IMG/VR virus record: IMGVR_UViG_3300005973_000002
Length of the DNA stretch: 64,000 nt
From: a virus
Lineage: Duplodnaviria > Caudoviricetes
Reading direction: 5' to 3' (one strand)
A model generated the notes under the pieces. That model was not told where the DNA came from, ran no database searches, and was given only the letters and a program-made list of their open reading frames with translations. Positions 25,757-60,559 of this stretch are shown piece by piece; position 1 is the first letter of the stretch, and each line of letters starts with the position of its first letter. Position numbers and translations under genes: made by a program.

Positions 25757-25792
25757 AACTGCCTTTATGTATTCTTTAGGATAATTACTCTC

Positions 25793-26302
25793 ATGTCAAC
25801 AAATAAAAAAACAGATGAAGATTTGCTAGACGATTTTGAGTCTATGCTGTCAGATAAAATGGCAGAAGAAGACAAACCATATCAATATACGGAACAATCT
25901 TTTGACCCACAAGTGCCAGAAACAAGTTTTAAGCCAACACCAACTAAAGAACTTGATAAAAAAATCAACAAACAACTAAAAGACTTTAGTTCATTGCTTG
26001 ATTCTTTATCTTCACTTGAAGATAAAAAGAAGGCACTATGGAAACAGATTTATGAAAATTCTGTTACGGATCGCAAAAACGCATATATTTTGTTTGGTGA
26101 TCTCTATAAAGATGTTCACAACAATCCAAATGAGCATGCCATTCATGGCCCAACCTTAGCCAAGTATCTTGAACGAATGGAAAAATCAAATCAACAGCTT
26201 ATTAAACTTGCTGAAATGATTGATGATGTAGTTGAAGAAGAAGAAGATTTGCTTACTGATGAAGATTCTATTTACGACAGGATTCAAAAGGGACAAAGGT
26301 GA
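25793..26302 (+). CDS. Hypothetical acidic helical protein
   Basis: 169-aa ORF preceded by an ATAATTA motif; coiled-coil-like. Confidence 0.7.
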   Translation: MSTNKKTDEDLLDDFESMLSDKMAEEDKPYQYTEQSFDPQVPETSFKPTPTKELDKKINKQLKDFSSLLDSLSSLEDKKKALWKQIYENSVTDRKNAYILFGDLYKDVHNNPNEHAIHGPTLAKYLERMEKSNQQLIKLAEMIDDVVEEEEDLLTDEDSIYDRIQKGQR

Positions 26303-28386
26303 TGGCGTTTTTTCTGAAAAAATTGATTAAAGAAGAAGTAAGAAAAACTTTGCGATTGCTCACTGAGGGTATCGTCCACATTGACAAACTCAAGCCAGAA
26401 GAGCTTTTAGAGTTTCTTAGAGGGTGGAATTTAGATAAGGCCAGGTTCCATGTGTCAGAAAAAATGGATGGCAATTACATGGCTTTGGGGGTGGACAATG
26501 GTCAGTTTTACTTGAGAAGCAAAAGTAAAACATTTGAGTCTGCCGATGATGTCCCAAATATATTCTTCATGAACGACTTTAGGAAATACTTCAATCTGCT
26601 TCAGTCCATTCCTTGGAATGAAATTTTTGTTAAGATGGCTACAAAGTGGAATTTTGATTTTGACGGAACGTTTGAAATCGAGGGTGAGGCCATTCCATCG
26701 TTCGACCACAACATTGTTATTTATGATGAGGCAAAAATTGGGGATGGTATCTTTCTTATTTTTAATACAAAATCTACTATGGGCAAAGAAAAAAGTGGAA
26801 GAGTTCACAATCCAGAAATGTGGCTTGACCTTGCGCAAGAGGTTAACAAATACAGCTCAGTTAAATTCTTTTCTGTACCACAGGTAAGTTTAGACGACCT
26901 GGAATTTGATAACGATCTTATCGTAAATTTAGAAGCTCTTATTCAAGAACACGGTAACTTTTTAAAAAAGCCAGCCAGAACACAAGCTGCCAAGGAACTC
27001 AAAGCCAAACTGTTGGCGACAATAGCAGAGCTTGGAAAACAAGCCAAGAGGCAAGCTCTACAAGTACCAGTATCAAGCAAATTTGGCCCGGAAGTAGAGG
27101 GCGTTGTTATTTCTGGACCAGGGGGGAAATTAGTAAAAATTGTTGACACAGAAAAGTTCACTGCCAGAAAAGAAAGAAACTGGCATTTCATTAATCAACT
27201 AATTTCGGCCGAGCGTGATTTCAAAAAAAGGATAAAAGAAAACCCACAAGATTTGGAACTACATCTGCTTGAATGGCAAGAAGAAGTAGAGGACATCCAA
27301 AAAGACTTTGATAAAAATGGGCACAAATACATAACGATCCGAAAGAAATTTGAAGATACGCAAAATGGAATTGACTTTGCATTGGGCATGATAAAAGCGA
27401 TGAAAGATCGCCTTGATGCTGGGCAAACTTCTGAGGAGGTTATTGCTGCCTTCAACAATCGTCAAGTTGTTCCCGAAAATGCGAAATCGCTTTCTGAATC
27501 AGTTTTTATTACCGAAGCTGAACTCAATGAAGGTGGAAATGTTTTTGATGAGATGAATTCTGTAGTGCCAAAATCACTTCTTGAACCAAGTATTGAAAGA
27601 GCGATGGTATTAGCCAATTTGGATGGAATTAAATTTGAAATAGTTGGCAACAAAACTAAACCATTCTTCAATGACATTGACGTTGCTATTGATGCAACGG
27701 ATTTGCTGAATTACCTTGGTCTTCCTGAAGGTACTCAAGAATTTTGGGATGAGCTGAATACTCATCTGGCAAGATCTAACGTTGAAAAATATTCAATCAT
27801 CAAGGGCCTAAAGCAGTTTCATATTTTGGTTCCACTTATTGACAGTTCCGGTGAACAGGTTAGAGCTTTCTTACCAGATGGTGAAAGCAGAAGTGACGAA
27901 CCTGCGTTAATTCAAATTGATGTGTTTGTTGGAAACTTGCAGTGGATGAAAGATATCAATTCTGGTGCGCCAGAATCAAGCAAATACAAGGCATCGTATA
28001 GGAATATGTTACTTGCGTCAATAGCTTCAGTAGTTCAATGGAGCATAGAAGGCGATTCAGACAATGAGTATTTTCGTTATGTGATGAATTTCAGGGACGG
28101 ACTAAAGCGACAGAAGATCAAAGTAATTTCACCAAGTGGCAGAAGAAAAAAACCTAAAAAGGAAAAGCTATCGGACCAAGTAGTAACTTCAAACCCTGAT
28201 GATCTTGCCAAAATTCTTTTCGGCAAAGGTGTCAAATGGTCTGACATGAATTCATTTGAAGAATTATACAATCTTCTTACAAGTAAAAAATTTCGCTTTG
28301 AAAAATTTTTACCTGAAATCATCAAGGAATTTAGAACCTCGCTAGAAAAACAAGGCATGGAAGTTCCTAAACAAGTTTCTGAATGA
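26299..28386 (+). CDS. Fusion: RNA/DNA-ligase-like adenylation domain plus Pol-beta-type nucleotidyltransferase
   Basis: Ligase motifs I (SEKMDG), III (EIEGE), IIIa (FLIF), IV (EGVVI) and V (LVKIV). Second half has GGNVF..G..K..NDIDVAID..QIDVFVG (DxD plus third Asp). Confidence 0.7.
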   Translation: MMAFFLKKLIKEEVRKTLRLLTEGIVHIDKLKPEELLEFLRGWNLDKARFHVSEKMDGNYMALGVDNGQFYLRSKSKTFESADDVPNIFFMNDFRKYFNLLQSIPWNEIFVKMATKWNFDFDGTFEIEGEAIPSFDHNIVIYDEAKIGDGIFLIFNTKSTMGKEKSGRVHNPEMWLDLAQEVNKYSSVKFFSVPQVSLDDLEFDNDLIVNLEALIQEHGNFLKKPARTQAAKELKAKLLATIAELGKQAKRQALQVPVSSKFGPEVEGVVISGPGGKLVKIVDTEKFTARKERNWHFINQLISAERDFKKRIKENPQDLELHLLEWQEEVEDIQKDFDKNGHKYITIRKKFEDTQNGIDFALGMIKAMKDRLDAGQTSEEVIAAFNNRQVVPENAKSLSESVFITEAELNEGGNVFDEMNSVVPKSLLEPSIERAMVLANLDGIKFEIVGNKTKPFFNDIDVAIDATDLLNYLGLPEGTQEFWDELNTHLARSNVEKYSIIKGLKQFHILVPLIDSSGEQVRAFLPDGESRSDEPALIQIDVFVGNLQWMKDINSGAPESSKYKASYRNMLLASIASVVQWSIEGDSDNEYFRYVMNFRDGLKRQKIKVISPSGRRKKPKKEKLSDQVVTSNPDDLAKILFGKGVKWSDMNSFEELYNLLTSKKFRFEKFLPEIIKEFRTSLEKQGMEVPKQVSE

Positions 28387-29199
28387 TTAACGACGATAAA
28401 ACTGGTTGAAAACATCCTGCGTTAAGCCGTAATCAACCAAAACAGGAACTTCTCTGCCATTTCTATTGACCGCACCCCAAGAACTTATACGCATAATATC
28501 ACCAGAAGGCATTCCAAAATCTGCCATCATGGTGACAACATCGCTGAACAATTCTGATTCTTCAATTTCTTCATAGTTGTCAGGAACAGGCATTTTCCAT
28601 CCACGTTGACCTGTTCGATCAATCATGTAATTGTTAAGAGTGGCCATCCAACCATCAAACTTGTGACCAGTGAGCCGCTCCCAATCAGACTTTTTTAATT
28701 TTTTAGCTCGTTCCATTTCAATGTAAAGATAGTTGTCAGCATCATAGTCCTTGACTTCTGCAATTACATTGTAGCCAATGTGCGACACATCTACTTCGAT
28801 TTCGTTTTGCGCCTGTCCCTTTTTGTTGTTTGCAATCTTGACCACCGTGTTTGGATCTACGGCGAAAACAACACGTGCCGAGCCCCCACCAAGTTTGCCA
28901 AGATGCTCACGGGCATAAGCTACTCTTTTACGAAAGCTTGGCAGCGACTTAAATTCTTCAGTGTCAAATCCTTGAGGATAGTCTGCCTCATCAAGCCAAC
29001 CTTCATACAAAGGCTGTTCATGAAGTTCTTCAAGAGCTTCAGCAACCAAATGGCCTATCATTTCCCGTAAATCGTTTTCTGAAATGCTTTTTTCGCCTTC
29101 CTGTTCTTCATTGTCAAACAATAACAATTTTTCTTTGCCGCCAACTTTTACAGTTTTTTTATTGGCTGACTTTTGTTCTTTGGTGTGCCCATCAATCAT
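28387..29199 (-). CDS. Protein kinase-like protein
   Basis: LGGGSARVVF Gly loop, VVKIA lysine, QNEIE helix-C Glu, GDI..SWG catalytic region and LVDYG (DFG equivalent). Confidence 0.8.
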   Translation of the reverse strand: MIDGHTKEQKSANKKTVKVGGKEKLLLFDNEEQEGEKSISENDLREMIGHLVAEALEELHEQPLYEGWLDEADYPQGFDTEEFKSLPSFRKRVAYAREHLGKLGGGSARVVFAVDPNTVVKIANNKKGQAQNEIEVDVSHIGYNVIAEVKDYDADNYLYIEMERAKKLKKSDWERLTGHKFDGWMATLNNYMIDRTGQRGWKMPVPDNYEEIEESELFSDVVTMMADFGMPSGDIMRISSWGAVNRNGREVPVLVDYGLTQDVFNQFYRR

Positions 29200-29438
29200 A
29201 GCTCATCCTTTTCGTACGCTCTAAGAGCGTACGCTTTATGTTCCATTTCTTCAACAGTTTTTTTTAAATTTTCAATGAATCTCATTGCCATGGTAAAGTC
29301 TTTGTCTTGAAGCTTTTCTCTTATATAACCAAACAATTCTTCAACATCCTCTATTTCAGACGTGACTCCAGGTGCGCCAAGTTGTTCTTCGATAGTTTCT
29401 CGTATTATGTTCCGAAGTTCTGATTTTTTGATTTTCAT
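29196..29438 (-). CDS. Small acidic protein with MKIKKSELRNIIRE leader (putative head internal protein)
   Basis: ATG at 29438 overlaps the upstream TGA (ATGA); leader motif shared with several genes. Confidence 0.7.
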   Translation of the reverse strand: MKIKKSELRNIIRETIEEQLGAPGVTSEIEDVEELFGYIREKLQDKDFTMAMRFIENLKKTVEEMEHKAYALRAYEKDEL

Positions 29439-32853: not shown

Positions 32854-33858
32854 ATGAGCAAGGGTTTAGATGTTGGTACATCATTTGTAATTCTTTCCTC
32901 TCATGGAAAAGATGGTACTGTTGAATACAGTGAAATTCGTGATGCGTTTTACGTGATAAAACCATCAACTCCAATCGCCACCAAAATGATTGAAAAAGGT
33001 TTGAAAGGCAAAACATTCGTAAAAGACGCAGACGGTTCATTTGTTCTTCTTGGACAGGATGCTATTGAGAAAGCGGTCGAGAGAAATGATAGCGCAAAAA
33101 GGCCAATGTATCGTGGTGTCGTTTCTGCCAAAGAGAAGGATGCTCGACGAGTTCTTTCGTTCCTTCTTAAAGAAGTGGTAGGGAAAGCCAAGAAAAAGGG
33201 AGAGAAGCTTGTTTTTTGTGTGCCAGCACAGCCTGTAGACCAAGCAGATGATGAATTTGATGTTGGTTATCATGAAGACGTTGTGACAAAAATCTTATCC
33301 GAGCAAGGTTATGATTGTCGTGCTATTAATGAAGCAGAAGCTCTCTGTTATTCCGAGCTTGAAAATGATGATTATACTGGTGTTGCTCTTTCTTGGGGCG
33401 CAGGAATGGTGAATTGCTGCGTAATGTTGAATGGCGAACCAGTGCTTACCTTCTCAACAACCCGTTCTGGTGACTGGATTGATCGTATGGCAGCAGTTGC
33501 AACCGGAGAGCCAGATTCTATCGTGCAGGCCGAAAAAGAAAACGGCGAGTTTACTATTGGTCAAGCTAACGAAAATCAGGTTCTTGAGGCTGTAGCTGCA
33601 AGCTACGTTCGTTTGATTGATTACACTACAAAACAGTTAGCTGCACATTTGTCAGTTTCTTCAGCACTTCCAAAGTTCAAAGACCCACTTCCAGTTGTTG
33701 TGGCTGGTGGCACTTCAAAAGCAAAGGGATTTGTCGACATGCTTGAGAAGAAACTTAAAGAAAACAATTTCCCTGTTGAGCTAAAAGAGGTTCGCCATGC
33801 AGAAGATCCTCTTCGTGCAGTATCTCGTGGATGTTTAATTGCTAGTGAATTGTTTTAG
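32854..33858 (+). CDS. Actin-fold ATPase (MreB/MamK/ParM/FtsA superfamily)
   Basis: Phosphate-1 GLDVGTS, connect-1 NEAEAL, phosphate-2 SWGAG and adenosine VAGGTS motifs in the expected order. Confidence 0.85.
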   Translation: MSKGLDVGTSFVILSSHGKDGTVEYSEIRDAFYVIKPSTPIATKMIEKGLKGKTFVKDADGSFVLLGQDAIEKAVERNDSAKRPMYRGVVSAKEKDARRVLSFLLKEVVGKAKKKGEKLVFCVPAQPVDQADDEFDVGYHEDVVTKILSEQGYDCRAINEAEALCYSELENDDYTGVALSWGAGMVNCCVMLNGEPVLTFSTTRSGDWIDRMAAVATGEPDSIVQAEKENGEFTIGQANENQVLEAVAASYVRLIDYTTKQLAAHLSVSSALPKFKDPLPVVVAGGTSKAKGFVDMLEKKLKENNFPVELKEVRHAEDPLRAVSRGCLIASELF

Positions 33859-45877: not shown

Positions 45878-46771
45878 TTAGACTATCCAACCAGAAGCAC
45901 TTTTACACTTACCACTCATCATTTTTGCAAAGCTTGAATATGAAATGCCACGCTCACGGCAATCAGCTTTGGCATTCTCACCAACCACAAACATCTCACC
46001 AGACACCTTGTTCTTCAAGACAACACCAGCATATTTACCACCCGCTATCTTGGCTCTATGTTCATCCGACAAAGGTTTTCTTTTTTCACCCTTGCGTTCC
46101 ACGTAAGTCGGTTCTTCCGTGCCAAGAAACCAACCGCCTGAAGATTTAGTCTTGCCTTTGAGCATTAAATGAAATGACTTATAAGAGAGATTTCTTTCTT
46201 GGCACCAAGACCTGACAGAACCTTCAATGGTAACAGTTTCACCAGTCTTTTTATTGGTGACGGTTACATCAGCAGAATGGTTATCCCAACGCTTTTGAGC
46301 GTTCTTGAGAGCTTCTTCTTTTTTCTTTGGTGTGTTCCACGTCTTTTTGTTTTTCTTGCTTACAATAGCACACACTTCTGGCGTTCGTGATGTTACTCGC
46401 CCGTCTGTTTCTGGGTTAAATGGACGAACATTTTTGCTACCTTCTCTACTTTCTGCTTTTGGACAAAGGTTGTAACATTCGTTTCCTCCATCAAAAAATT
46501 TATCAAGGTAAGCCTGTTCTTTAGCGAGTTGTTCTTCCCTGGCTCCATCTACTGTTTCTATTGCTTCAAATATAAATGCATCTTCGCCACATTTGTTATA
46601 ATCTCTTTGTAAAAACAAATTCGCATGCCTATTTCTGCGCAAATCGTCCCGATGAGAATAAGCTCGTTCTTTTAAACGAGAAGCGGATCCATAATAATAA
46701 CGTCCATTTTTTGTATTAGTAATTTTATAAATACCACGCTTATTTGCATATCCGTGTAAAAATATTTTCAT
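45878..46771 (-). mobile_element. Intact free-standing GIY-YIG homing endonuclease
   Basis: RGIYKITN..YYYGSA..R..H..L..N.H.N..LQ..YNK.G..F..E motif; C-terminal repeated DNA-binding modules. Confidence 0.88.
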
Positions 46772-46955: not shown

Positions 46956-48878
46956 TTAAATTATACCCATGTCAAGAACAGTTACGGTTGCGTAGAAGTC
47001 ATTTCTGACCATCTTCTTACCGTATCGGGTCATGACGCCCTTACGTGGAGTAAAGTCTTCCTGAGCGTAGATAACTGGAGTAAGGATAAGTGGCACGTAT
47101 GGTGCGTAGATGAATCCTGACTCAAGGAAGGTGTTACCCTTCAATCCGATCAAGAGCTTGTTGCTTGGGAAATATGGGTCTTTGTAGACCGTGTAACGGT
47201 TGTTCAAAGTACCAACTGCCTCTGCTCCGATTACCATGTTGTCACGAACCTGACCGTCAGCATCTACTCTGTAGGAAGGCTTGTAGGCAACAAGGTGCTC
47301 AAGGATGGTGCAGACATCTGGGGAAGTAACAATGAAGTTACCGGAACCACGGAGTGTCTTACGGTGAATGGTGTTTGCTGCGTCCGTAACAGTCTCAAGG
47401 AGGGTCTGGTACCACTCTTGAATGTTTACGAATGCCATTGGGCCTGGAGAAAGCGTGCTGCTCTGGAGAGCCTCTGCGCCGGTGAACTTGTTGACAAGCT
47501 TACCTGGTGCTCGGGACCAGTAGAGGTTTGCTGCTCCTGCCTGGGTGAGAAGGTCGTTCAAGATTTCACGGTCAATGTCAAGCGTAATCATCTCGGAGAG
47601 AATGTTTGTAAGCTCAACTTCTACATCGATTGAGTAGAATGCTGTGAGATCCTGAGCCATTTCTGGCGACCAACGAGCCCTGAGCTTACGGGTTTGTGCC
47701 GTAACGCTGGTGGACTCAATGCGGATGTCAACCTCTGGGATACGTGGGCTTGCGTCGACTGCGAAGTCAGACTCGAAGCTTGGAATCGTAAGAGTTGAAC
47801 CGTCAGAGTTTACGCTGAGTGCGTCTGCGATAGCTGCCGAAGCAGTTACTGCATTACCGACAGCTCCATCAGGTGCTGGTGCGGTACCTGCATTTGCAAG
47901 ACGAACTACGTGAAGCACGTGTGAACCGTTAAGCGGATCTGGTGTGAAGATACCAGTTGCTGAGTTCCAGTTACCACGCTGGTTCATCTGACGAAGGTTA
48001 AGCACGCCTCGACCACCTTGATACTTCTCTCCCCACTCAACAGCAGAGTTGGTTGCTGCACCGAAACCGGTGAGTGCAATCTGGTTGAGGTTGTTGAGGT
48101 CAGCACCGTTGATCTTGTCGGTAAACTCAGATGCGCTGACAAACACGAAGCAGTAATCAAGTACGCCATCGGTAAGGTCGTTTTCAACACGAGTATCGTA
48201 CATGACGAAACGTGCGTTGAGACCTTCGAAGTCATCAGCGGTGTCTACTGTGCCACCTGGGGTCCAAATGGAGCCAGATGCCCAGTAACCAACAGAGTCG
48301 GTTGAACCAGAAAGGAAACGGCTCTGCTTGTGAACCTTGGAGTAACCATGACCTACAAGGTCATACTGTCCACCGGTTGCAAGAGAACCAGAACGTACGC
48401 CAACACCACGTGGGTTGTTGTATACGGAATCCTGGCTGGTGTAAGTTGATGGATCTACAACGCTAGTTGTTGCAAACTGGTTAGCTGCGGTTCCTGCGTC
48501 ACCACCAACCGAGCTGCCGTAAGTGTAATCGAGGTAGAAAAGAAGACCGGTTGGAAGGCTCATTGGCTGAACCGACACGATCTCGTTTGAAATCAAACCT
48601 GCGAAAACACGGCGAACGATTGGGAATGCAACGTTTGTGAAACCTGCAATCTTCCCGCTTGAGGTCAAAGAAGCACCACCAAGGGACAAAGCGTTGGTTT
48701 CCTTGAGAAGCTCAGCTGCCTGGTTCTCAAGAAGACGTGCCATGCCATCTCGGTTCATGCCTTTTAGGCCCTCAAGAAGACCAGTTGCTCCCCACTTCTT
48801 TACGAGTCGTGGTGAGTCTGCACCAAGCGAGCGACGGTGTACGCCTTCTGCGAGTTGCTCTAAAGTGAAAGTCTTCAT
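46956..48878 (-). CDS. gp23: Major capsid protein (T4 gp23 family) with large insertion
   Basis: AFPIVRRVF..IVSVQPM..PTGL.FYL; AQTRKLRARWSPEMAQDL..E..LDIDREIL; RKTLRG.GNF; GFIYAPYVPL; F.PRKGVMTRYG motifs. Confidence 0.97.
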   Translation of the reverse strand: MKTFTLEQLAEGVHRRSLGADSPRLVKKWGATGLLEGLKGMNRDGMARLLENQAAELLKETNALSLGGASLTSSGKIAGFTNVAFPIVRRVFAGLISNEIVSVQPMSLPTGLLFYLDYTYGSSVGGDAGTAANQFATTSVVDPSTYTSQDSVYNNPRGVGVRSGSLATGGQYDLVGHGYSKVHKQSRFLSGSTDSVGYWASGSIWTPGGTVDTADDFEGLNARFVMYDTRVENDLTDGVLDYCFVFVSASEFTDKINGADLNNLNQIALTGFGAATNSAVEWGEKYQGGRGVLNLRQMNQRGNWNSATGIFTPDPLNGSHVLHVVRLANAGTAPAPDGAVGNAVTASAAIADALSVNSDGSTLTIPSFESDFAVDASPRIPEVDIRIESTSVTAQTRKLRARWSPEMAQDLTAFYSIDVEVELTNILSEMITLDIDREILNDLLTQAGAANLYWSRAPGKLVNKFTGAEALQSSTLSPGPMAFVNIQEWYQTLLETVTDAANTIHRKTLRGSGNFIVTSPDVCTILEHLVAYKPSYRVDADGQVRDNMVIGAEAVGTLNNRYTVYKDPYFPSNKLLIGLKGNTFLESGFIYAPYVPLILTPVIYAQEDFTPRKGVMTRYGKKMVRNDFYATVTVLDMGII

Positions 48879-48933: not shown

Positions 48934-51195
48934 TTAGTCAACCTTTTTGATCCCGGCAAGTACCTGCCAGCGATTTGCGGATTGGCCATTGGAATCATGA
49001 CCTGCCTGTGGCTGAGCGGCCTCAGTGAGGTTTGCGCTCCCTGGTTTGGTCACCTTAGAGGAAGAACCACCCAATTTGCGGGAAGCTGATGCATGCTCGT
49101 CGAGCCTGCGCTTAATTTTTGTGTAAATAGCCTTTGTCTCGGCTACGGATGCACCCTTGTCAAGGTGCTCGACAATTTGCTGTAGAGCCTTCTTGGTGAG
49201 TGCTTTTTCAGAGAGTGCTCTCTGAAGGAATTTGCTGTAGTAAACTGTCTTTGAAGTGAACAAGTTGGTCTCTGCGAGCTGTCTGTTCAATCCTTCAACC
49301 TGCTTGCCTCTTGCTTCAAGAAGCTTGACAGCCTTTGCGAGCTTCTTTTCAAGAAGTCTGTTCTTACGTGCGAGGTGTTTGAACTTACGGGATTCCATGT
49401 GCATTGCCTCTTCCATCTCATCTGCAAGAACCATGTCTTCTTCTGCGGATTCCATATCGTCTACGTCGCCACCAAGGTCAACATCCATTTCGTCATCCTC
49501 GTCATCAACGATTTCAACTTCCTCATCCTCAGCACCTACATTGAGATCAACGTCTACGTCAAGATCATCAACACCAAGTGCTGCCAACTCTTCTTCAACC
49601 TCTGGCGGAAGGTCTACCGAAAGAACAAGATCTGCGGCATCATCAACACCAAGGTCATCATCTTCCATCATATCCATTTCGTACATGCTTTCTTTCATTT
49701 TAAGATTGCTCTTATGTTTCCTGTCCTCAAGGTTCTCATGGGAACCGTCATCACCACCTTCTGGTTCGGCATCTTCCCATGACTCTGCTTCTTTGCCGTC
49801 GGAAGCTTCTCTAAGAGCATCAAGCTTACGTTTGATATTTTCCTTGCGGATTGCCCTTACTGCCTCTGCAAGTTCGGCGTCATCAACTTCAAACTCTGCG
49901 ACTGGTTCTTCGTTAGTGTCACCAAAGCCAGCTGCACCTTCTGCAACGTCATCATTTGCATCAGTGTTTGCGTCTGCGCTGTTCTCATTCATTGAACGAG
50001 TAACGGTTTGATCCTGATCTTCCTCATCAACAACAGGCTCGGCCTCATCCCAAGGACGATCGTGCACATCGCCACTAATTGCATCTGCATCAACAGAGCC
50101 AGCGGTTCCACCCTTCATCTCTTCGGCAAGCTTGCCCTCCTGAGCGACTTCAACGTCTTCGGGACCACCAAGATGTGGATCAACACCAGATACATCAGCT
50201 GCGTGACGTGAATATTCGTCATCAACTTTCAAACCGGACTCGCCAGTGTGAGCAGAATCCTTAGCGAGGTTTTCATCTTCCTCGAAAAGTTTTGCTGCAA
50301 ATTCTTTGAGACTTGTCATATCGGTACCTTTACCTTGTTCTTTCTTCAAGTAACTATTATCCAAACCTGCCTCTTTCAGCTTTAAGAATAAAAATTCTAA
50401 CTTGTTTTCGTTGAGACGAGCTTGTTTGTTAGTAATTAGGCCCCGATCTCGCATTCCATCCAAAGCTTCGACTAAATCAAAAAGTCTCTTTTTAAGAGAA
50501 CTTCTCGTGATGTCAGAAACTCGTCCTGAGAAATAAGCTCGATCAATCCGTTCAGAAATATTACTAAGGACCCTATTGTATTCTTTATAAGAAACCGCCT
50601 CTGTTGGAAGCGGTGCAACTTCCTCTTCTTCTTCAGTTGGCTCACCAGCAGCTGGTTGAACTGGTGCTGCTGGACCAGCAGTTTCTGGAGCTGGCACAGC
50701 AGCTGGCTCTGTCGGCTGAGTTGGCTGTGCACCTGCTGGAGCACCTGCTGCTTGGAGTGGTGCCTCTCCAGGCGTAATTGTAACCTGATCCGAGTCAGCG
50801 TCTACAAAAAGATCTTCGAAATCAACAACGATCTTTCCATCTTCATCTGGCATAGAAGCACCAACCAAATCCTCACCGCCAGGTGCAGGAACTGGGGCGT
50901 CCACTGTTTGATCGCCAAGCTCTCCTGCAACCGTTTGAGTCGGATCAGTTGTGCCGGCTGGAGCAGTGGTTGGTTGTGTACCACCCATACCCTGAGGGTC
51001 TGGTGGTAGTTGAGGCGAAACCTCCTCTTCATCTTCCTGTTCAAAGAAGAAGTCCGAGGAACCCATAGCTTCCTTCGCAATTACTTTTTTAATGTAAGGG
51101 GTGAGTTCTTCAATTAAGGCTTTCTTCGCATCGGCCTCTGCGATTTCCTTAAGCTTTTCAGCGTCCCTTACTGCTTCTGTAAAAAGATCTGTCAT
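48934..51195 (-). CDS. Prohead core scaffolding protein (gp22-like), very acidic
   Basis: Lies immediately upstream of the capsid gene; D/E-rich, C-terminal coiled coil, ends NRWQVLAGIKKVD. Confidence 0.8.
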   Translation of the reverse strand: MTDLFTEAVRDAEKLKEIAEADAKKALIEELTPYIKKVIAKEAMGSSDFFFEQEDEEEVSPQLPPDPQGMGGTQPTTAPAGTTDPTQTVAGELGDQTVDAPVPAPGGEDLVGASMPDEDGKIVVDFEDLFVDADSDQVTITPGEAPLQAAGAPAGAQPTQPTEPAAVPAPETAGPAAPVQPAAGEPTEEEEEVAPLPTEAVSYKEYNRVLSNISERIDRAYFSGRVSDITRSSLKKRLFDLVEALDGMRDRGLITNKQARLNENKLEFLFLKLKEAGLDNSYLKKEQGKGTDMTSLKEFAAKLFEEDENLAKDSAHTGESGLKVDDEYSRHAADVSGVDPHLGGPEDVEVAQEGKLAEEMKGGTAGSVDADAISGDVHDRPWDEAEPVVDEEDQDQTVTRSMNENSADANTDANDDVAEGAAGFGDTNEEPVAEFEVDDAELAEAVRAIRKENIKRKLDALREASDGKEAESWEDAEPEGGDDGSHENLEDRKHKSNLKMKESMYEMDMMEDDDLGVDDAADLVLSVDLPPEVEEELAALGVDDLDVDVDLNVGAEDEEVEIVDDEDDEMDVDLGGDVDDMESAEEDMVLADEMEEAMHMESRKFKHLARKNRLLEKKLAKAVKLLEARGKQVEGLNRQLAETNLFTSKTVYYSKFLQRALSEKALTKKALQQIVEHLDKGASVAETKAIYTKIKRRLDEHASASRKLGGSSSKVTKPGSANLTEAAQPQAGHDSNGQSANRWQVLAGIKKVD

Positions 51196-51213: not shown

Positions 51214-51744
51214 TTAGGCGCCACCACCAGAAGGAGTCGAGGTGCCAAGACCAAGAGAGCCAATGGTTTGACGACCAACGTTTTCTCTTGTGTCGGATGG
51301 AGAAGCTAATCCATCTCCACCAAAGGGCCCGCCGCCGCCTTGGGCAGCTTGAGTTACACCAACGCCTTCTGCTGGAATATCAGCTGGGTTTTGACCTTCG
51401 GCTGGAACTGCGATGTTTGGAGCATACGGCGAACCTGGTAGACCACCACCGCCAACCACAACCTCATCGAGATTTGGTGCAAGCTCATAATCTCTGCCAT
51501 AGTTTGTTGGGAGATCCCAGTAAGCAATTGCCTGAACATCGGTACCTCTTCCAGAATCGATCGGGTCTGAAGCATCAAGCGGACCAATCAAAACTGAATT
51601 AGCCTGTTCCTCCAATAGAGCATCGTTAATTTCATTACGGTAAATTGGAGAACCTGGGTGTGCAGTTTGTAGTGATTCGGTATCAGAAGAACCGTTTCCA
51701 CGGGTAGTGGATGGGACATCAACTTTGAATTGTTCGAATGGCAT
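51214..51744 (-). CDS. Gly/Pro-rich putative head protein
   Basis: 176-aa ORF in the head operon. Confidence 0.55.
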   Translation of the reverse strand: MPFEQFKVDVPSTTRGNGSSDTESLQTAHPGSPIYRNEINDALLEEQANSVLIGPLDASDPIDSGRGTDVQAIAYWDLPTNYGRDYELAPNLDEVVVGGGGLPGSPYAPNIAVPAEGQNPADIPAEGVGVTQAAQGGGGPFGGDGLASPSDTRENVGRQTIGSLGLGTSTPSGGGA

Positions 51745-54413: not shown

Positions 54414-57400
54414 TTATTGCGATGAAACGAAATTGCCTTGATTGGTAACGACGAAGTCGATGGACAAGAATTCCAAAGTTCTGGTTGGAACAAGGAAAAT
54501 CTTTCCACGAACCGTTCTGTTTTCAATGTCGGCTTGTGTAGTAGTTGTGGTGTCAATTCTTACAAGGAATCTCTCCACGCCTCTCTGGTCCTGCACCCTC
54601 TTCAAGATTGGGTTTACCAACTGAGAAAATCTTGCAAGCGTTTCGGCACGACCAGGTTCGAATACGAAGCGTCGAGCAACACGGCGAACATCTCTTCTAA
54701 GTTGAATGAGAAGTCTACGTACATTGACTCTCTCAAGTGCAGAATCACGAGCAAGTAGAGTACGCTGACCCCAGACTACAACACCATCCGATCCTGCAAA
54801 GGATACAAGTGGGTTAATCTTGACATCTTGAAGCGCATCCATGTTGTCACGGGACAATGGAAGCGTAGATTCTTCAGTTGTCTGTAGGGCGCCACGTGCA
54901 AAACCTGCTGGGGCAAACCATGGGAATCCGACTGCATCATTGAGACCGAATGCACCAAGAACAGCAACCGAAGGCGGAACCTGTCGAATAGTGTTGTTGA
55001 GTGTATCCCTCAAGATTACGTCTGGGAAGTAAGCTGCTCCGAAGGAAGTGTTCAAACCTCGATCACGGTGCTGATTTGCGGTAAATCTAACGCTCAAATC
55101 CTGTGAGGAAGCAGTAACGAGTTGATTTGTGGTGTCATACTCTGGAAGATCCATGATGTACATTGCATCAAATCTTTCCTCGATAAGCTGTAGAGCGTCA
55201 TCGGTGATCTGTGGATGTCTAATTCCTGGGATGGTAAGAAGTTGGATATCAGTTTCGGTGTCGTCGGCAATGATATCCAAAGCGGTATCATAAGCCTTTA
55301 CGGTAGGACCATTCGACACTCCCCTGTTTGTGTTGTCCATTTCTTCGATAATTGCGAGGTTGGTAAGATTGGCAGTGTCTTCATCAAAGATTCTAACACC
55401 ATCAAATCCGCCCTGGATAATTCCGCTGAACTTAGCAACCTGCCTTACAGATGAATCCGACAAATCGTCAGCTGTCAATGCTCTAACCGAACCAGAGGTA
55501 GCTACGTTTCCGGCTCTTACATAACTCCAACTTACAAGCTGGGTAGTGTCAGCAAGATTCGTGATCGGATCTCTTACGATCCTGATGTTCTCAAGAGAGA
55601 ATAGGTTGTTATTGAACCTATCCGCATCAAGAATACCGGTTTCTGCCGCATCTGCCACTCCTTCATTGTCGCTGACGACAACATTCAACCAATCAGTCTG
55701 ATGCTTAGGGAAGAACTTGGTGAAGTTGGCAATAGTTCTTTCTGGCTCGGTTGTTGAGTTTGGCTCTTCAACTGAAAGCTGACGAGTAAACTGAATACCC
55801 CAATAGAGGCCCTTGTCTACACGACGGCTGGTAACCGAACCAAGGTTAAGGCTTCTGCGGAACTGAACTGGCATCTGTACGACATTGTGAGCTGGATCAG
55901 AAGAGCCAGTAATAAGAACGCTGTCTGCAAGTGCTTCGCCTAATGGAGCCAATGGTGCAGTTCCCGAGGTTACCAAGTGTGGAATTCCTCTGAAACCAAG
56001 CGGAAGAGCCGAAGCATCCAACTCAACGTTTTCAACGTCTGGCGAGACTTCTACTCTGATAACCTTGGACTGGTTTGGATACTCGCCAGTAGTTTGAATC
56101 TTCTGGTTACCTTCGGCAGCATCAAAGTTGTAGAAGGTGTTGAGGTCACCAATCACTCTAGCAATGTAATTGTCGGAGCTTGGATTGAGTGAAAGCCCTC
56201 TCCAAGCCTCAGTTGCCTCACGTTTCTTATCGATGTCGTTGAAACGACGGATGAGAAGGTCGAAAGTTCCATAAGGGTTTACATCATTGATTGCCGGAAC
56301 AATGTTTTCAACAGACCATTTGACCTGATCGTTGCCCCAAGCACCGTCATCCAAAAGATGAATTCTGAAGAGATTTCTTGGCTTGCCGCCAAGCCTCTGT
56401 GAAACAATCCAAGGTGATTTTGGCGTAGTGTATCTATCTTCCCAGTTTTCATAACTTGGTACTACGGTTGAGCCGGAGTTTCGAGACAATGAACCAGTTG
56501 CCAAGAATGCGATTGGTTCAAATCCAGCTGCCAAACCTCCACCTACAACTTCATCAGTAGTGGTATCGACCACAGAAGAACCAGTAACGGTTGCAAGGTT
56601 TGGATGAACCGAGTAATCGGCATAAAGCAAGTAACCTGCCTTTTCAAGGTTGAAAGGATCGGTGTTAAGGGCACTGCCAAGGTAATTTGGTGCGTCAACA
56701 TCAAAAGATGCAGTAATGACATTGGGAAATAGAGGATCAGTTCCCTTGTGACCATTCAAGAACATCACAAATTCCTGTCTGCCGCCGGAGAGGTTGACGG
56801 AGCCTAGGAATGAACCGCTCTTATTTTCTTCTGTGGCAACAAGGTTTGACGCTGGAGCTGCTCCTGGAACCATTGTCGATGCAGAAAGTGACGAAGAAAG
56901 GGTGATGATAACACCGGAAGCAGCTAAAAGAACTGCCCTAACGATTGGCGTTCCCTCACCAGGGAGACCAGCGTCAGTAAGAAAACCCGAACCGTTTGCT
57001 TCTGACATAAAGGTGTTTAGGAAATACAAACGCCCTAGAGGTCCCCCTTCATTGGCGTACATGTTGTTATCCAATGCTCCACCAGCTTGTGGCTGTTCGT
57101 CACCAACAACAAAACCTGCACCCTGAACTTTACCCTGATTCTCTCCAGATTGTTCTCTTCTCTTGGCTTGACCAGCACCAAGAACCCTAAGGTAAGTTGC
57201 TGCTTGTCTATTACGAAGCCACTCGCCCACAGCAAGTGGTCCATTTGCCTTGTTGTCTTCTGGAAGTCCGAATACAACCGTAAAGTCCTGCGTTGTTGCA
57301 AAAGTTACAGGAACAAATGCAGGTCCCTTTACAGCAGTTCCGATCACACCAGCTGGGATTCCAACAGGTTGAATTGCTGTTGGGCCAGTAAGGTTGATAA

Positions 57401-57443
57401 CCCTGGCTGAAACTCCTGCACTTTTGAAATTAATTTGAGTCAT
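54414..57443 (-). CDS. gp18: Tail sheath protein, copy 2
   Basis: FKSAGV..RVI.L; GTAVKGPAFVP; PPSVAVLGA..PWFAPAGFARG; INPLVSF..VWGQRTL..RVNVRRL motifs. Confidence 0.95.
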   Translation of the reverse strand: MTQINFKSAGVSARVINLTGPTAIQPVGIPAGVIGTAVKGPAFVPVTFATTQDFTVVFGLPEDNKANGPLAVGEWLRNRQAATYLRVLGAGQAKRREQSGENQGKVQGAGFVVGDEQPQAGGALDNNMYANEGGPLGRLYFLNTFMSEANGSGFLTDAGLPGEGTPIVRAVLLAASGVIITLSSSLSASTMVPGAAPASNLVATEENKSGSFLGSVNLSGGRQEFVMFLNGHKGTDPLFPNVITASFDVDAPNYLGSALNTDPFNLEKAGYLLYADYSVHPNLATVTGSSVVDTTTDEVVGGGLAAGFEPIAFLATGSLSRNSGSTVVPSYENWEDRYTTPKSPWIVSQRLGGKPRNLFRIHLLDDGAWGNDQVKWSVENIVPAINDVNPYGTFDLLIRRFNDIDKKREATEAWRGLSLNPSSDNYIARVIGDLNTFYNFDAAEGNQKIQTTGEYPNQSKVIRVEVSPDVENVELDASALPLGFRGIPHLVTSGTAPLAPLGEALADSVLITGSSDPAHNVVQMPVQFRRSLNLGSVTSRRVDKGLYWGIQFTRQLSVEEPNSTTEPERTIANFTKFFPKHQTDWLNVVVSDNEGVADAAETGILDADRFNNNLFSLENIRIVRDPITNLADTTQLVSWSYVRAGNVATSGSVRALTADDLSDSSVRQVAKFSGIIQGGFDGVRIFDEDTANLTNLAIIEEMDNTNRGVSNGPTVKAYDTALDIIADDTETDIQLLTIPGIRHPQITDDALQLIEERFDAMYIMDLPEYDTTNQLVTASSQDLSVRFTANQHRDRGLNTSFGAAYFPDVILRDTLNNTIRQVPPSVAVLGAFGLNDAVGFPWFAPAGFARGALQTTEESTLPLSRDNMDALQDVKINPLVSFAGSDGVVVWGQRTLLARDSALERVNVRRLLIQLRRDVRRVARRFVFEPGRAETLARFSQLVNPILKRVQDQRGVERFLVRIDTTTTTQADIENRTVRGKIFLVPTRTLEFLSIDFVVTNQGNFVSSQ

Positions 57444-57499: not shown

Positions 57500-60400
57500 T
57501 TATACGGCATCGAACGACACGCCGCTTCTAGTAATGATGAAGTCAATTGCAATGAACTCAACCGCCCTCGTTGGAACGAGCACAATTCGAGCATTGACTC
57601 TATTGTTCTCACGATCAAGGTTTGTATTGTTTCTGCCATCAACGATGACATCAAATCTCTCAATACCAGCACGAGCCGAAATGAGGTTAAGAACGCTGCG
57701 GAATCTCCTATCAAGTTCAGTGTAAATTTCCGGAGTAATCTGTTCGAAGATTGCTCGGTTGCCAATCTCGATTATCCTGCGCTTGAGTTCATTCAACATT
57801 CGAACAACATTGATACTGCCGAGCGCAGACTCGGCTTGTTCAAGCGTGTTTTGTGCGAAGATTACGAAACCAGATTCGCCAGGGAATTTGACGATTGGGT
57901 TAATGTGAATGTCAAAAAGACGTTCACGTTCTGGTTGCTTAATTCTTGTCTTTGTAAGCTGTACAAAATCAAGAGCTGCTCTGTTGAAGCCTGCTGGTGC
58001 GAACCAAGGATAAGCAACACGGTCATTGAATCCAAGTGCTGCAAGTGCTCCAACAGAAGCTGGAACGGTTACTCTGCGCCTGTTTACATCATCCTCAAGT
58101 ACGAAATCTGGGAAGTAAGCACCTGCAAACTCATTGTCAAGAGCACGCTGCTCAAAGTTATTTGCAGTCTGTTCGATGTCGATAAATCTTGAAGTTTGAT
58201 TGTCCCAAATTCTGTTACCATCAGAGTCATATGCTGGTAAATCCATGGCATAGAAAGCAAGACCAAAGTCACGAACTTCATCAGCAGCAAAGTCTGTGAC
58301 CAACGGATCACGCTGACCTGGAATAGTAAGCAGATTGATGTTAGATGCGATTGCATCAGTGATAATCTCTGAAGCTCTTCGATAAGCGAAAACAGTCTGG
58401 TTTGAAGTACCAAATCCGTTTACGTTCTCGTTAAGTCCAGGTGAAGTGAAAGTAGATGCTGCATTTCCAACCTCGCTTCCAGCAGTTTCTGTTGAAGTGG
58501 AACGGTCATTAAATGTAGCTGCATTCTTATCAAGAATGTTGACGCCATCGAAACCACCATATAGAATAGAGGTAAACTTTGCAAAGTTGGTGAACTTGTT
58601 GAAGTCGGCAGCAGACGTGCCCTTTTGGTAAAGGGTGGCAAATGTAATTCTATCCAGACCAGAAATTTCATCAGTTATCTTGTATTCGAACCCATCTGGC
58701 GTTCTGTTACGAAGATAAGCAGCTTCTTTCATGTGGATTGCGGCTGATGATGTAACATCATTGAGTGATGCATTTCCTAGCGCAACACGAGCAAGCGTAA
58801 ACTTATTGTTGTTGAAATCATCTTTAGCTGAACCTGTAACAAGTACATCAAGTTTTTCAATACCTGCAAACTTAGTGTAGCTGTTGACCAACTGGTTTGG
58901 AAGATTGACAATGTTTGGATTCAGTGCGTTGGTGTTTCTAGAAGTCTTGACCCCCCAAAAATAACGTGCATCAGTTAATTCGGTTGCTCCTGGAGCACCT
59001 TCGAAACCCGGATTGGTTGCTGCATTTCCTCTTGTTACCTTATAACGGTATGGAAGAGGAGGTACTATAGACCACGCAAGACGTGGATCAGTTGCACCCG
59101 ACAAAGCAAGTCTTGCTAGGGCCGCCGACCCAGCAGTATCAGAAAGAAGTGAGTTGGTGCTCAATGGAGCAGTTCCTCGGAAGCCGAATGGAACAGCATC
59201 TTCAGGAATCTTCTTTTGTGCTACCTGGTCAGAAACAAATACTCGAATGTATCGGCTTCTGTTTTCAAACTTGCCAGTGGTGAGAAGGCGACGATCTTCT
59301 TCAGCTTCAGCGTCAAAGTTGAAGCGAGCACGCTTATCTCCAATAACCTTAGCAATGTAGTTGTCCGAATCCGGATCAAGAGAAAGGTTGTTGAACTGCT
59401 CAAGAATCTGTGGTTCGGCATCTGTATCATCAAATGTTCTTACAACAAGTGTGAAAGTTCCGTGTTTATCACGAACATTTGAAGACTTGAGAAGATTGGT
59501 GATAGAAATCTTGAAACGCTGATTTGCGTATGCGCCATCATCAACAGCTTCAATGTAAAAGAGGTCATACTCAGTTTTGCCATATGGTTGCGAGATAAAC
59601 CAAGGTGTTTTTGGAGTTGTGAATCTGGTGTCAAAACGACCGAACGCCTCTAGGAATGGAAGAGAGGTGTTGCCAGAAGTAGAAGAAGTGTTAATGCTAC
59701 CGCTTGCAATAGCAACATCGCCGCTTCCAGTGCCAACATTTGCGAGTTCGGCATCGACTGCATAATCAGCATAGACCACATGTTTTTCGTCGCTGAACCT
59801 TTCTGGATCAGTATTCATCAGCTTGGCAAAGTAGTTATCAGAACTTGGATTCAGAGAAGCGGTTAGAATTCTAACGCCAGGGAATCCGTCGTCATTGCCA
59901 AACGACGCACCAGCCGATGAAGAAATAACAATTTTGAATTCTCTGCTTGCAGAGTTTACAGTTGCAACGTCATCAACAAAGCTGCTGTACTGCTCGTTGC
60001 TGTCATCTCCATTTAGAATTTGAATTCGAGTACCTGACGCAGCGAAAATAACACCACGAGTAAGGTAAACCTCGTCGTTCGAACCCGAGGTAAGAAGTGA
60101 ATTATTGTCAGAAAACATCGGCATTCCGAGTGCTTCTGAAGCAGTAACAACGTGGCGAGCGACGAGGAATTGAACAGCACCATTAGTAGTAGCTGGGTTA
60201 ACGGAACTGAGAGTTCCACTTAGACGGAATCCAGCATTTTTGACTGTTCCTTGCAAACGAGTTGTCTCGATATCACTTGACGTCTCATTGGCACCCGCAC
60301 CAAGAATTCTGATGAAGGTAAGTGCTGTCCTGTTTTCCAGGAATCTATCGACTGCGTATGGCGCAGCATATCTTGGATTTAGATCGCCGAAGCGAGTTCG

Positions 60401-60559
60401 GAAATCAGCAAATGATCCAACAGTGAATGGGACGAATGCCGGACCACGTTCGGCACCACCAATTACACCAGCTGGAACGCCTACTGGCTCCTGAATCTGG
60501 GCTGTTAGATCGATTTCTCTATCGAAGAAGCCTGGAAAGTTAAAAATTTGGCTAACCAT
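57500..60559 (-). CDS. gp18: Tail sheath protein, copy 1
   Basis: FNFPGFFDREIDL; AERGPAFVP; PWFAPAGFNR; INPIVKFP..SINVVRML motifs. Confidence 0.95.
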   Translation of the reverse strand: MVSQIFNFPGFFDREIDLTAQIQEPVGVPAGVIGGAERGPAFVPFTVGSFADFRTRFGDLNPRYAAPYAVDRFLENRTALTFIRILGAGANETSSDIETTRLQGTVKNAGFRLSGTLSSVNPATTNGAVQFLVARHVVTASEALGMPMFSDNNSLLTSGSNDEVYLTRGVIFAASGTRIQILNGDDSNEQYSSFVDDVATVNSASREFKIVISSSAGASFGNDDGFPGVRILTASLNPSSDNYFAKLMNTDPERFSDEKHVVYADYAVDAELANVGTGSGDVAIASGSINTSSTSGNTSLPFLEAFGRFDTRFTTPKTPWFISQPYGKTEYDLFYIEAVDDGAYANQRFKISITNLLKSSNVRDKHGTFTLVVRTFDDTDAEPQILEQFNNLSLDPDSDNYIAKVIGDKRARFNFDAEAEEDRRLLTTGKFENRSRYIRVFVSDQVAQKKIPEDAVPFGFRGTAPLSTNSLLSDTAGSAALARLALSGATDPRLAWSIVPPLPYRYKVTRGNAATNPGFEGAPGATELTDARYFWGVKTSRNTNALNPNIVNLPNQLVNSYTKFAGIEKLDVLVTGSAKDDFNNNKFTLARVALGNASLNDVTSSAAIHMKEAAYLRNRTPDGFEYKITDEISGLDRITFATLYQKGTSAADFNKFTNFAKFTSILYGGFDGVNILDKNAATFNDRSTSTETAGSEVGNAASTFTSPGLNENVNGFGTSNQTVFAYRRASEIITDAIASNINLLTIPGQRDPLVTDFAADEVRDFGLAFYAMDLPAYDSDGNRIWDNQTSRFIDIEQTANNFEQRALDNEFAGAYFPDFVLEDDVNRRRVTVPASVGALAALGFNDRVAYPWFAPAGFNRAALDFVQLTKTRIKQPERERLFDIHINPIVKFPGESGFVIFAQNTLEQAESALGSINVVRMLNELKRRIIEIGNRAIFEQITPEIYTELDRRFRSVLNLISARAGIERFDVIVDGRNNTNLDRENNRVNARIVLVPTRAVEFIAIDFIITRSGVSFDAV

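Follow-up and report, generated by a model that had tools for sequence, protein, structure and literature searches.

The gene described here lies in a 64,000-nucleotide stretch of DNA from a virus (Duplodnaviria; Caudoviricetes), IMG/VR record IMGVR_UViG_3300005973_000002. This whole stretch, which we call the window, is part of a large T4-superfamily myovirus and encodes a major capsid protein of the Gp23 type (PF07068, E 2e-78) along with a pair of tail-sheath paralogs and a baseplate wedge. From a GTG at position 26299 to a stop at 28386 on the forward (+) strand the frame is open and encodes 695 residues, or 694 if counted from the ATG at 26302. This ATG overlaps the TGA of an upstream 169-residue open reading frame (ORF) as TGATG (start context AGG TGATGG), and an identical database copy of the protein, P0002, is 694 residues long. 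On these grounds the true start is probably the ATG at 26302, with translation coupled to the upstream gene. Residue numbers count from the GTG.

We are confident that this fusion protein is a two-enzyme protein, one enzyme ligase-type and the other Pol-beta-type. A sequence-only reading of the window had proposed a polyprotein of this kind, and its domain assignments, a ligase-type adenylyltransferase followed by a Pol-beta-fold nucleotidyltransferase (NTase), hold on Pfam, Foldseek and VIA evidence. The strings it quoted are all present: LRLLTE23/GIVH, K55-M-D-G, E-I-E-G129-E130-A, GIFLIFN, E267-G-V-V and L-V-K280-I-V-D in the first half, and ITEAELNE411, G412-GNVF and D459-I-D461-V in the second. 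In an alignment of 21 full-length relatives (40–82% identity), K55, D57, G58, G129, E130, A131, E267, G268 and K280 are invariant, as are E411, G412, G413, G450, N451, K454, D459, D461 and D541. Given this invariance or near-invariance, we conclude that the motifs are conserved features and not chance strings. The wider interpretation that we argue for, at roughly even confidence, is that the protein is a tagged precursor of two nucleic-acid break-repair enzymes of a huge T4-superfamily phage, which would be packaged and cleaved.

The two halves of the fusion protein

The RNA-ligase-type adenylyltransferase domain occupies residues 24–283 (positions 26368–27147, + strand). Ligase motifs I (K55), III (E130), IIIa, IV (E267) and V (K280) lie there in the order proposed, with the reservation that motif V has a single lysine and a valine (Val282) in place of the second. 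Motif I reads S-E-K55-M-D57-G58-N, and its invariant residues are nearly so in a wider set of 33 members; G129-E130-A131, F152..F155 and E267-G268 of motifs III, IIIa and IV vary little or not at all. The match of the fusion protein to the Pfam RNA_ligase family (PF09414) is sub-threshold, at 23.8 bits against a cut-off of 27 over residues 50–271; the relative P0042 scores above the cut-off (29.5 bits), and P0006, P0009 and P0021 carry precomputed labels for this family. A phmmer search of the Protein Data Bank (PDB) with the fusion protein found nothing, and a profile of the ligase half found coiled-coil noise only.

Structure comparison was more informative. Using an AlphaFold model of residues 1–405 with a predicted local distance difference test (pLDDT) score of 91.6, the best Foldseek matches are T4 Rnl2, Trypanosoma brucei REL1 (TbREL1), Rnl3, T4 Rnl1 and Naegleria Rnl5 (NgrRnl), with E values from 3e-5 to 1e-3. 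VIA-align gives Z 11.3 for NgrRnl (190 residues, 3.9 Å), 10.7 for REL1, 10.5 for Rnl2, 10.5 for Trl1-LIG (224 residues) and 9.1 for Rnl1, while DNA ligases rank lower (Z 8.0–9.2). The model thus suggests that the N-terminal half is an RNA-ligase-type sealing enzyme, with a small margin over DNA ligases and an atypical motif V. With the nick-sealing and tRNA RNA ligases NgrRnl, REL1, T4 Rnl2 and fungal Trl1-LIG it shares the adenylyltransferase fold, motifs I, III, IIIa and IV, and the lack of an OB domain. It differs from these RNA ligases in its 11–15% identity to them, its sub-threshold Pfam score, its single-lysine motif V and a helical module that has no specific match.

That module, residues 284–393 (27148–27477, + strand), was described in the sequence-only reading as a helical linker. 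It is instead a confidently folded helical bundle (helices at 284–386, pLDDT ∼97), and only residues ∼394–411 are linker-like. The bundle takes the place of the OB domain of DNA ligases, which is absent from the N-half model. Its structural matches are generic helical bundles only, though alignments to Trl1-LIG reach into it, and an all-helical appended module is shared with Rnl2, Rnl1 and Trl1. The bundle probably binds the substrate.

The second half, residues 412–695 (27532–28386, + strand), is by structure model and conserved motifs a Pol-beta-fold NTase of a minimal family X-like kind, with palm and thumb, followed by an extra C-terminal helical part. Its key residues are G450-N, K454, D459, D461, D541, S555-G556, K564 and R568-N569. 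The Pol beta signature is found in full, as V-G450-N ... D459-I-D461-V and a third carboxylate in I-Q-I-D541-V, with both the glycine and all three aspartates invariant; distant members have the classic G-S instead of G-N. In a match to Pol beta that is not itself significant, made with a profile of 45 stand-alone relatives, the register is correct, with GGNVF..VVPK lying opposite Y-F-G-D-F-E-K-R-I-P-R and GN..K...GDIDIA opposite G-S-F-R-R-G....G-D-M-D-V-L.

A model of residues 403–695 (pLDDT 94.8) was compared with the PDB by Foldseek. Pol mu, beta and lambda lead, at E 3e-4 and up, and the best 50 matches are all family X DNA polymerases (PolX). The ten best VIA matches are likewise all PolX (Z 6.3–8.8, 149–190 residues), aligned over palm and thumb within model residues 1–255; the first eight of these (Z 8.1–8.8, 156–190 residues) include Pol X of African swine fever virus (ASFV), of which 156 of 176 residues align at 3.4 Å. 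Among the viral structures of BFVD the nearest are uncharacterized jumbo-phage proteins, the best from Agrobacterium phage Atu_ph07 (TM-score 0.65), followed by giant-virus PolX. The 8-kDa lyase and helix-hairpin-helix (HhH) domains of cellular PolX are absent, and the C-half begins at the palm, as ASFV Pol X does. Sequence profiles are less telling. No Pfam, PHROG or NCBIfam family matches the C-half, PHROGs also lack a family for the fusion protein as a whole, and 45 stand-alone C-domain relatives are likewise without a PHROG match. A profile of these 45 against the PDB has Pol beta as its best enzyme, at a non-significant E of 0.15, and the Pfam PolX profiles (DNA_pol_B_palm/thumb) do not match the fusion protein; of the 45 family members, one gets no further than E 0.044, to DNA_pol_B_palm. 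Family X and the C-half have in common the palm and thumb, G-[SN]..K/R..D-x-D with a third Asp, and F..P-[KR] at the palm start; they differ in that identity is 10–14% and Z at most 8.8, that the C-half has extra beta-hairpins and the C-terminal helical part, and that its partner is RNA-ligase-type and not DNA-ligase-type. We therefore describe the modelled C-half as PolX-like and do not call it a PolX member, a Z of ∼8 being rated as middling by the tool itself. A likeness to CCA-adding enzymes, which the sequence-only reading had mentioned, was rejected: it amounts to Z 4.1 over the palm alone, and 46 residues separate the GG of GGNVF from the DxD that follows, which is not the distance of the class II GGxVRD motif.

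An exhaustive HMMER search gave 391 relatives, 72 of them at E < 1e-30, almost all in uncultured huge phages. Both halves occur in the order seen here, in reverse order (P0025) and alone (∼280 residues for the C-half, ∼360 for the N-half); the longest polypeptides that contain them reach 1,818 residues. This co-occurrence in both orders and as separate proteins, among ∼390 relatives, argues for a functional partnership of the two halves. In at least 11 relatives, one or both halves are joined to a HIGH-motif cytidylyltransferase/NMNAT-like domain (PF01467); we speculate that this partner might supply NAD+ for a Tpt1-type step or adenylylate 5′-phosphate ends. P0014 is extended at its N-terminus by a segment that has two H-x-T motifs and weakly matches the CPD domain of fungal tRNA ligases (2H/CPD-like); this segment has no homolog in the window. 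Among sequenced phages, stand-alone C-half relatives are found only in Lak megaphages, Sinorhizobium phage Phosso and Atu_ph07; Lak and Atu_ph07 have been placed among the gp23-type 'group 2.2' jumbo phages (PMC7824862). A tblastn search of 50,697 phage records with the whole fusion protein found no match, nor did one with P0161, while the ligase half alone had one weak match, in phage Phosso (E 0.1). An hhalign comparison of profile A3 with P0080 recovered the C-domain alone and was uninformative on DUF6267.

The sequence-only reading had also offered a role in making nucleotide signals, an option weakened by these comparisons, as the C-half is not CD-NTase-like and has PolX as its nearest folds. 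We regard it as very improbable that the C-half makes second messengers or modifies small molecules or proteins (in the manner of CD-NTases, MenT or ANT), with the ligase-like half adenylylating a target other than nucleic acid and the HIGH-NTase fusions pointing to nucleotide or NAD metabolism. Those PF01467 fusions do fit such a role, and CD-NTases and MenT are among the weaker structural matches (Z 4.4–6.0). However, terminal uridylyltransferases (TUTases), poly(A) polymerases, CD-NTases, MenT and the CCA-adding enzyme align over only ∼90 palm residues (Z ≤ 6.2), against 150–190 residues including the thumb for PolX, and the ligase half has the motif set and fold of a polynucleotide ligase.

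Leaders and L/I-x-E junctions

The fusion protein opens with a 22-residue leader, MAFFLKKLIKEEVRKTLRLLTE (26302–26367, + strand), which is basic (pI 10) and amphipathic, ends L-T-E, and is predicted to be a capsid-targeting propeptide with a protease site after E23. Its residues 16–22 have pLDDT < 50. A second protease site is predicted after E411, at the end of the linker formed by residues 394–411 (27478–27531, + strand), which is variable, has pLDDT 34–65 and ends in a conserved L-N-E; the residues ahead of this motif vary among the 21 relatives. There are 14 [LI]xE sites in the fusion protein, and only E23 (20/21) and E411 (21/21) are kept by 60% or more of the family. These two sites fall exactly on the leader/ligase and linker/NTase boundaries, each beside a low-pLDDT segment.

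The same pattern extends across the superfamily. Of 97 C-domain starts, 9 begin directly with M-[GS]G and have no motif, 42 follow N-terminal leaders and 46 are internal junctions. Glu stands at position −1 in 41 of the 42 leaders and [LIVM]xE in 40 of them, while 45 of the 46 internal junctions have [LIVM]xE, position −2 being free; combined, 86 of 88 junctions end in Glu and 85 in [LIVM]xE. Leader lengths cluster at 9–13 and 16–21 residues. Eleven of the stand-alone leaders have the shape of the T4 capsid-targeting sequence (CTS), for example MKSFKQFVKE/SG, MVSFKQFLLE/GG and MKRFKTFISE/GG, to be set beside MKTYQEFIAE/A of IPII and IPIII and MKTFKEF...ITE/A of IPI in the T4 record. In T4, gp21 cleaves after the Glu of L/I-X-E, IPIII needs no more than its first ten residues to be targeted to the capsid (PMC9026906), and propeptides are 10–20 residues long (PMC5694885).

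In the phage studied here, [LI]xE is enriched in the scaffold (20 sites against 10 expected, z 3.6), in the capsid protein (z 3.0) and in two small head-cluster ORFs (z 4.5–4.8), and is not enriched in the sheaths, the wedge or a 595-residue protein of the baseplate region (z ≤ 0.9). The [SAG]xE motif of the phiKZ/SPN3US type is not enriched in this phage. The capsid protein itself has a T4-CTS-like N-terminus, MKTFTLEQLAE/G. Furthermore, seven ORFs of the window, the fusion gene and six others, share an amphipathic leader of the type MK[IL]xKSxLRxxIxExI..., three of them ending L-x-T-E/[GA]; the search pattern for this leader has only two non-N-terminal matches in the window. The six others are at 29417, 31577, 32356, 38852, 52269 and 53415, all on the reverse (−) strand, with leaders such as MKIKKSELRNIIRETIEE, MKLNKVELRKMIKGVLLEVLTE/A and MKLNRTQFKKILKECIRELITE/G. 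By its sequence, this leader resembles a portable tag carried at the N-terminus of unrelated proteins.

An origin of the GG junction as a double-glycine bacteriocin leader was considered and rejected. Such leaders need a hydrophobic residue at −4 from a cut after GG; this position is variable here, and the junction of the ligase half has one Gly only.

As judged from these sequence patterns, the balance tips slightly towards the protein being head-packaged and cleaved. The cleavage by a head protease proposed in the sequence-only reading has thus gained comparative support from conserved junctions, leaders and [LI]xE enrichment, all of it in the form of sequence patterns. The comparison with the T4 internal proteins IPI–III and Alt is a close one in some respects. 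Each has a short [LI]xE-ended leader and a gp23-type capsid, and the fusion gene, like alt, lies beside baseplate genes; T4 Alt-family genes keep their place beside the baseplate module (PMC5512222). The fusion protein differs in having a second, internal predicted cut that would free two enzymes and in having a longer, amphipathic leader of its own. We know of no ligase together with a polymerase-like NTase among T4 head cargo.

Several observations weigh against packaging. No prohead protease gene is found in the 64-kb window, where tblastn with the protease of Flavobacterium phage immuto had no match. Upstream of the fusion gene there is no T4 late promoter TATAAATA, and evidence for a late promoter was not found. 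Distant ligase-half relatives start EFGK or GFG and not with LxE, the leaders of P0025–27 consist of MTE only (3 residues), and the predicted mature fragments are both acidic (pI 5.4–5.7), which sets them apart from the small internal proteins of T4, which are basic. The alternating L-x-E-G-G could also have a structural role, capping the NTase domain at its N-terminus. An ORF at 51214–51744 was tried as a candidate prohead protease and set aside, since it resembles neither the immuto protease nor any chain in the PDB. A complete 210-kb relative, with a HIGH-NTase/ligase/NTase version of the protein and the junction RLTE/GG, does encode a Peptidase_S77 (108.6 bits).

Some of these observations fit an alternative that we consider fairly unlikely, namely that the same two enzymes form an intact, bifunctional cytoplasmic repair protein of the Rnl + RlaP type, neither packaged nor cleaved, in which L-x-E-G-G marks the start of the domain for structural reasons and the N-terminal helix has a part in oligomerisation or regulation. 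A strand or a cap can give rise to an alternating conserved pattern; the MTE-only leaders are too short for targeting; many distant relatives have the EFGK/GFG start, and both fragments are acidic. To our knowledge, T4 Rnl1, Rnl2, Pnk and NrdC.11 are not virion proteins, which also counts for this alternative. However, the nine members that begin M-[GS]G with neither L nor E indicate that the motif is dispensable for the fold, the motif lies in low-pLDDT segments, and the same leader is found on unrelated ORFs of the window. The stand-alone leaders, moreover, copy the T4 CTS, and [LI]xE is enriched only in head proteins.

Substrate and proposed mode of action

A precedent for coupling a nucleotide-adding enzyme with a ligase is RlaP, a Pol-beta NTase that in jumbo phages is distributed in parallel with RNA ligases and to which T4 NrdC.11 belongs (PMC7824862, PMC12776372). 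PfRlaP adds one or two nucleoside monophosphates (NMPs) to damaged RNA 3′ ends, and is required to restore a tRNA that is short of a nucleotide (PMC12776372). The 'add, then seal' logic is thus already established by the work on RlaP. The likeness is that a Pol-beta-superfamily NTase is coupled to an RNA ligase (Rnl-type or RtcB) in jumbo phages, here by fusion, in either order, in dozens of relatives; the difference is that RlaP is usually a separate gene, whereas here we see a covalent fusion with protease-site-like junctions and PolX as the nearest fold. Homology to RlaP was not detected: there is no match to PF10127 at E up to 1, hhalign of profile A2 against T4 NrdC.11 gives a probability of 0.5%, and there are no RlaP-named proteins among the best 50 BFVD matches of the C-half. 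There was no RlaP chain in the PDB set searched. We would describe the C-half as a second form of the same ligase and NTase partnership, PolX-like and here covalent.

The RNA-repair function proposed in the sequence-only reading agrees with this known RNA ligase/RlaP partnership, while PolX as the nearest fold keeps DNA repair in play. Supposing a repair enzyme, we lean towards RNA over DNA as its substrate, on the grounds of the ligase's nearest folds, the 2H fusion of P0014 and the RlaP precedent. Against the interpretation as a whole, it must also be counted that the PolX likeness (Z ≤ 8.8, a middling value) points to DNA as much as to RNA, and that motif V, K280-I-V282, has one lysine where studied ligases have K-x-K, with an invariant Val282 at the position of the second lysine. 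That lysine is essential in studied ligases, and ligase activity could be altered by its replacement; K286 and K250 are conserved near the motif.

These points bear on a further alternative, one we judge unlikely but take seriously, in which the protein is a module for DNA break or gap repair, either LigD-like or base-excision-like in the manner of ASFV Pol X with a ligase, ASFV being known to pair its Pol X with a ligase for repair. On the phage genome, the PolX-like half would then fill gaps or extend a 3′ end by a nucleotide, with the ligase sealing the nick, possibly on just-injected DNA. All ten best structures for the C-half are family X DNA polymerases, including the minimal ASFV enzyme (156/176), giant-virus PolX come after the phage hypotheticals in BFVD, and one archaeal cluster of look-alikes is fused to a PD-(D/E)XK nuclease. 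An injected protein would, furthermore, meet the phage genome first, and ligases of the Rnl2 and Rnl5 types do seal duplex nicks. On the other hand, the ligase half has no OB domain and RNA ligases outrank DNA ligases by 1.5–3 Z units, cellular PolX have lyase and HhH DNA-binding domains that are missing here, and P0014 carries a 2H/CPD-like domain, typical of the healing of RNA 2′,3′-cyclic phosphates. LigD itself is alike in that one polypeptide combines end-healing (2H-like in P0014), nucleotide addition and sealing, and its polymerase adds the ribonucleotides that its ligase prefers. The parts are different: PolX-like instead of archaeo-eukaryotic primase (AEP), an Rnl-type instead of an OB-containing DNA ligase, and 2H instead of LigD-PE.

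Under our preferred interpretation, that of a tagged and packaged repair precursor, the 22-residue amphipathic leader would recruit the protein to the scaffolding core of the prohead. A T4-type (gp21/S77) prohead protease would cut after E23 and E411, in the L/I-x-E motifs. The capsid would then contain a ligase of ∼44.5 kDa and a ∼32-kDa NTase, which would be injected with the DNA, so that repair would be on hand before any phage gene is translated. The N-half is expected to be ATP-dependent, to form lysyl-AMP at K55 and to seal a break between a 3′-OH and a 5′-PO4, its helical bundle gripping the substrate instead of an OB domain. In the C-half, a two-metal centre of three aspartates (D459, D461 and D541) would add one or a few nucleotides to the 3′ end, so that lost bases would be restored, or a gap filled, before sealing, by RlaP-like logic. 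The favoured substrate would be RNA, most plausibly tRNA cut by host anticodon nucleases.

Extending this to the group as a whole, we propose only tentatively that the capsids of huge T4-type phages are stocked with a set of repair enzymes in the form of tagged polyproteins, which are cut at L/I-x-E and injected with the genome. An RNA-ligase-type sealer and a PolX-like nucleotide adder would, as an equally tentative suggestion, make up this cargo, with 2H and HIGH-NTase modules in some lineages.

Among the relatives, the long proteins P0130 (1802 residues), P0032 (1818 residues) and P0082 (1441 residues) contain up to three PolX-like NTase copies, or NTase, HIGH-NTase and ligase modules, each module being preceded by [LI]xE. 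This arrangement suggests polyprotein cargo in other huge phages.

Genomic setting and wider meaning

The upstream ORF (25793–26302, + strand), whose stop overlaps the fusion ATG, encodes an acidic, helical protein of 169 residues. It is a conserved partner, its homolog directly preceding the fusion gene in 7 related loci, and it falls in a viral-only hypothetical family with no Pfam or PHROG match. The pair adjoins the baseplate module in seven related loci, a conserved position. Scans of the locus for sigma-70 promoters and terminators were uninformative. Four genes have a palindromic TAATTA ahead of their ATG at a spacing of exactly 5 nt ([AC]TAATTA-N5-ATG), at window positions 25781 (+), 32495 (+), 40491 (+) and 29857 (−), and these genes include the 169-residue ORF that heads the fusion operon. 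The element could serve this phage lineage as a promoter or as a signal for initiation.

Downstream, a 270-residue ORF at 28387–29199 (−), assigned to phrog_4301 (no assigned function), is convergent with the fusion gene, with zero gap to its stop. It is kept beside the fusion gene in 4 loci, and has 8 [LI]xE sites against 3.4 expected. Further along, at 32854–33858 (+), is a 334-residue actin-fold protein that matches Pfam Volactin (PF25216) at E 1.6e-64 and is 77–90% identical in four related loci; the family was named for an archaeal actin, so its occurrence in a phage is unusual.

The head and tail genes also have some features of their own. The Gp23-type capsid protein (46956–48878, −; 639–640 residues) matches Pfam and PHROG models only from about residue 356–366, and its nearest relatives are in a 484-kb uncultured phage, Flavobacterium phage immuto, Microcystis phage Mel-JY01, cyanomyoviruses and RM378. 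Directly downstream of the capsid gene, at 45878–46771 (−), is an ORF resembling homing endonucleases (phrog_314, E 3e-26). The acidic scaffold-like protein, in which [LI]xE is twofold enriched, has 753 residues (48934–51195, −) and ends in RWQVLAGIKKVD. Two adjacent paralogs of ∼1,010 residues each, at 54414–57443 (−) and 57500–60559 (−), both have a tail-sheath domain at the C-terminus and are suggestive of sheath genes that were duplicated and enlarged. The IMG/VR fragments with close homologs of the fusion protein are 43–67 kb long and rated 9–29% complete, which implies genomes of several hundred kb.

Both halves of the fusion protein belong to uncharacterized families confined to huge, mostly uncultured phages, and the NTase half has neither a Pfam nor a PHROG model. 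We found no other description of a minimal family X-like fold in phage repair systems. Head packaging is directly testable, given that the cultured carriers Atu_ph07 and Phosso exist. The conserved leaders could act as portable capsid-targeting tags for this phage group. If the interpretation as an injected repair kit is true, it would be the first packaged ligase and polymerase-type phage cargo known to us, and would answer translation-blocking defences, such as anticodon nucleases, before any phage protein is made: cut tRNAs, or the incoming phage DNA, would be mended ahead of the first protein synthesis.

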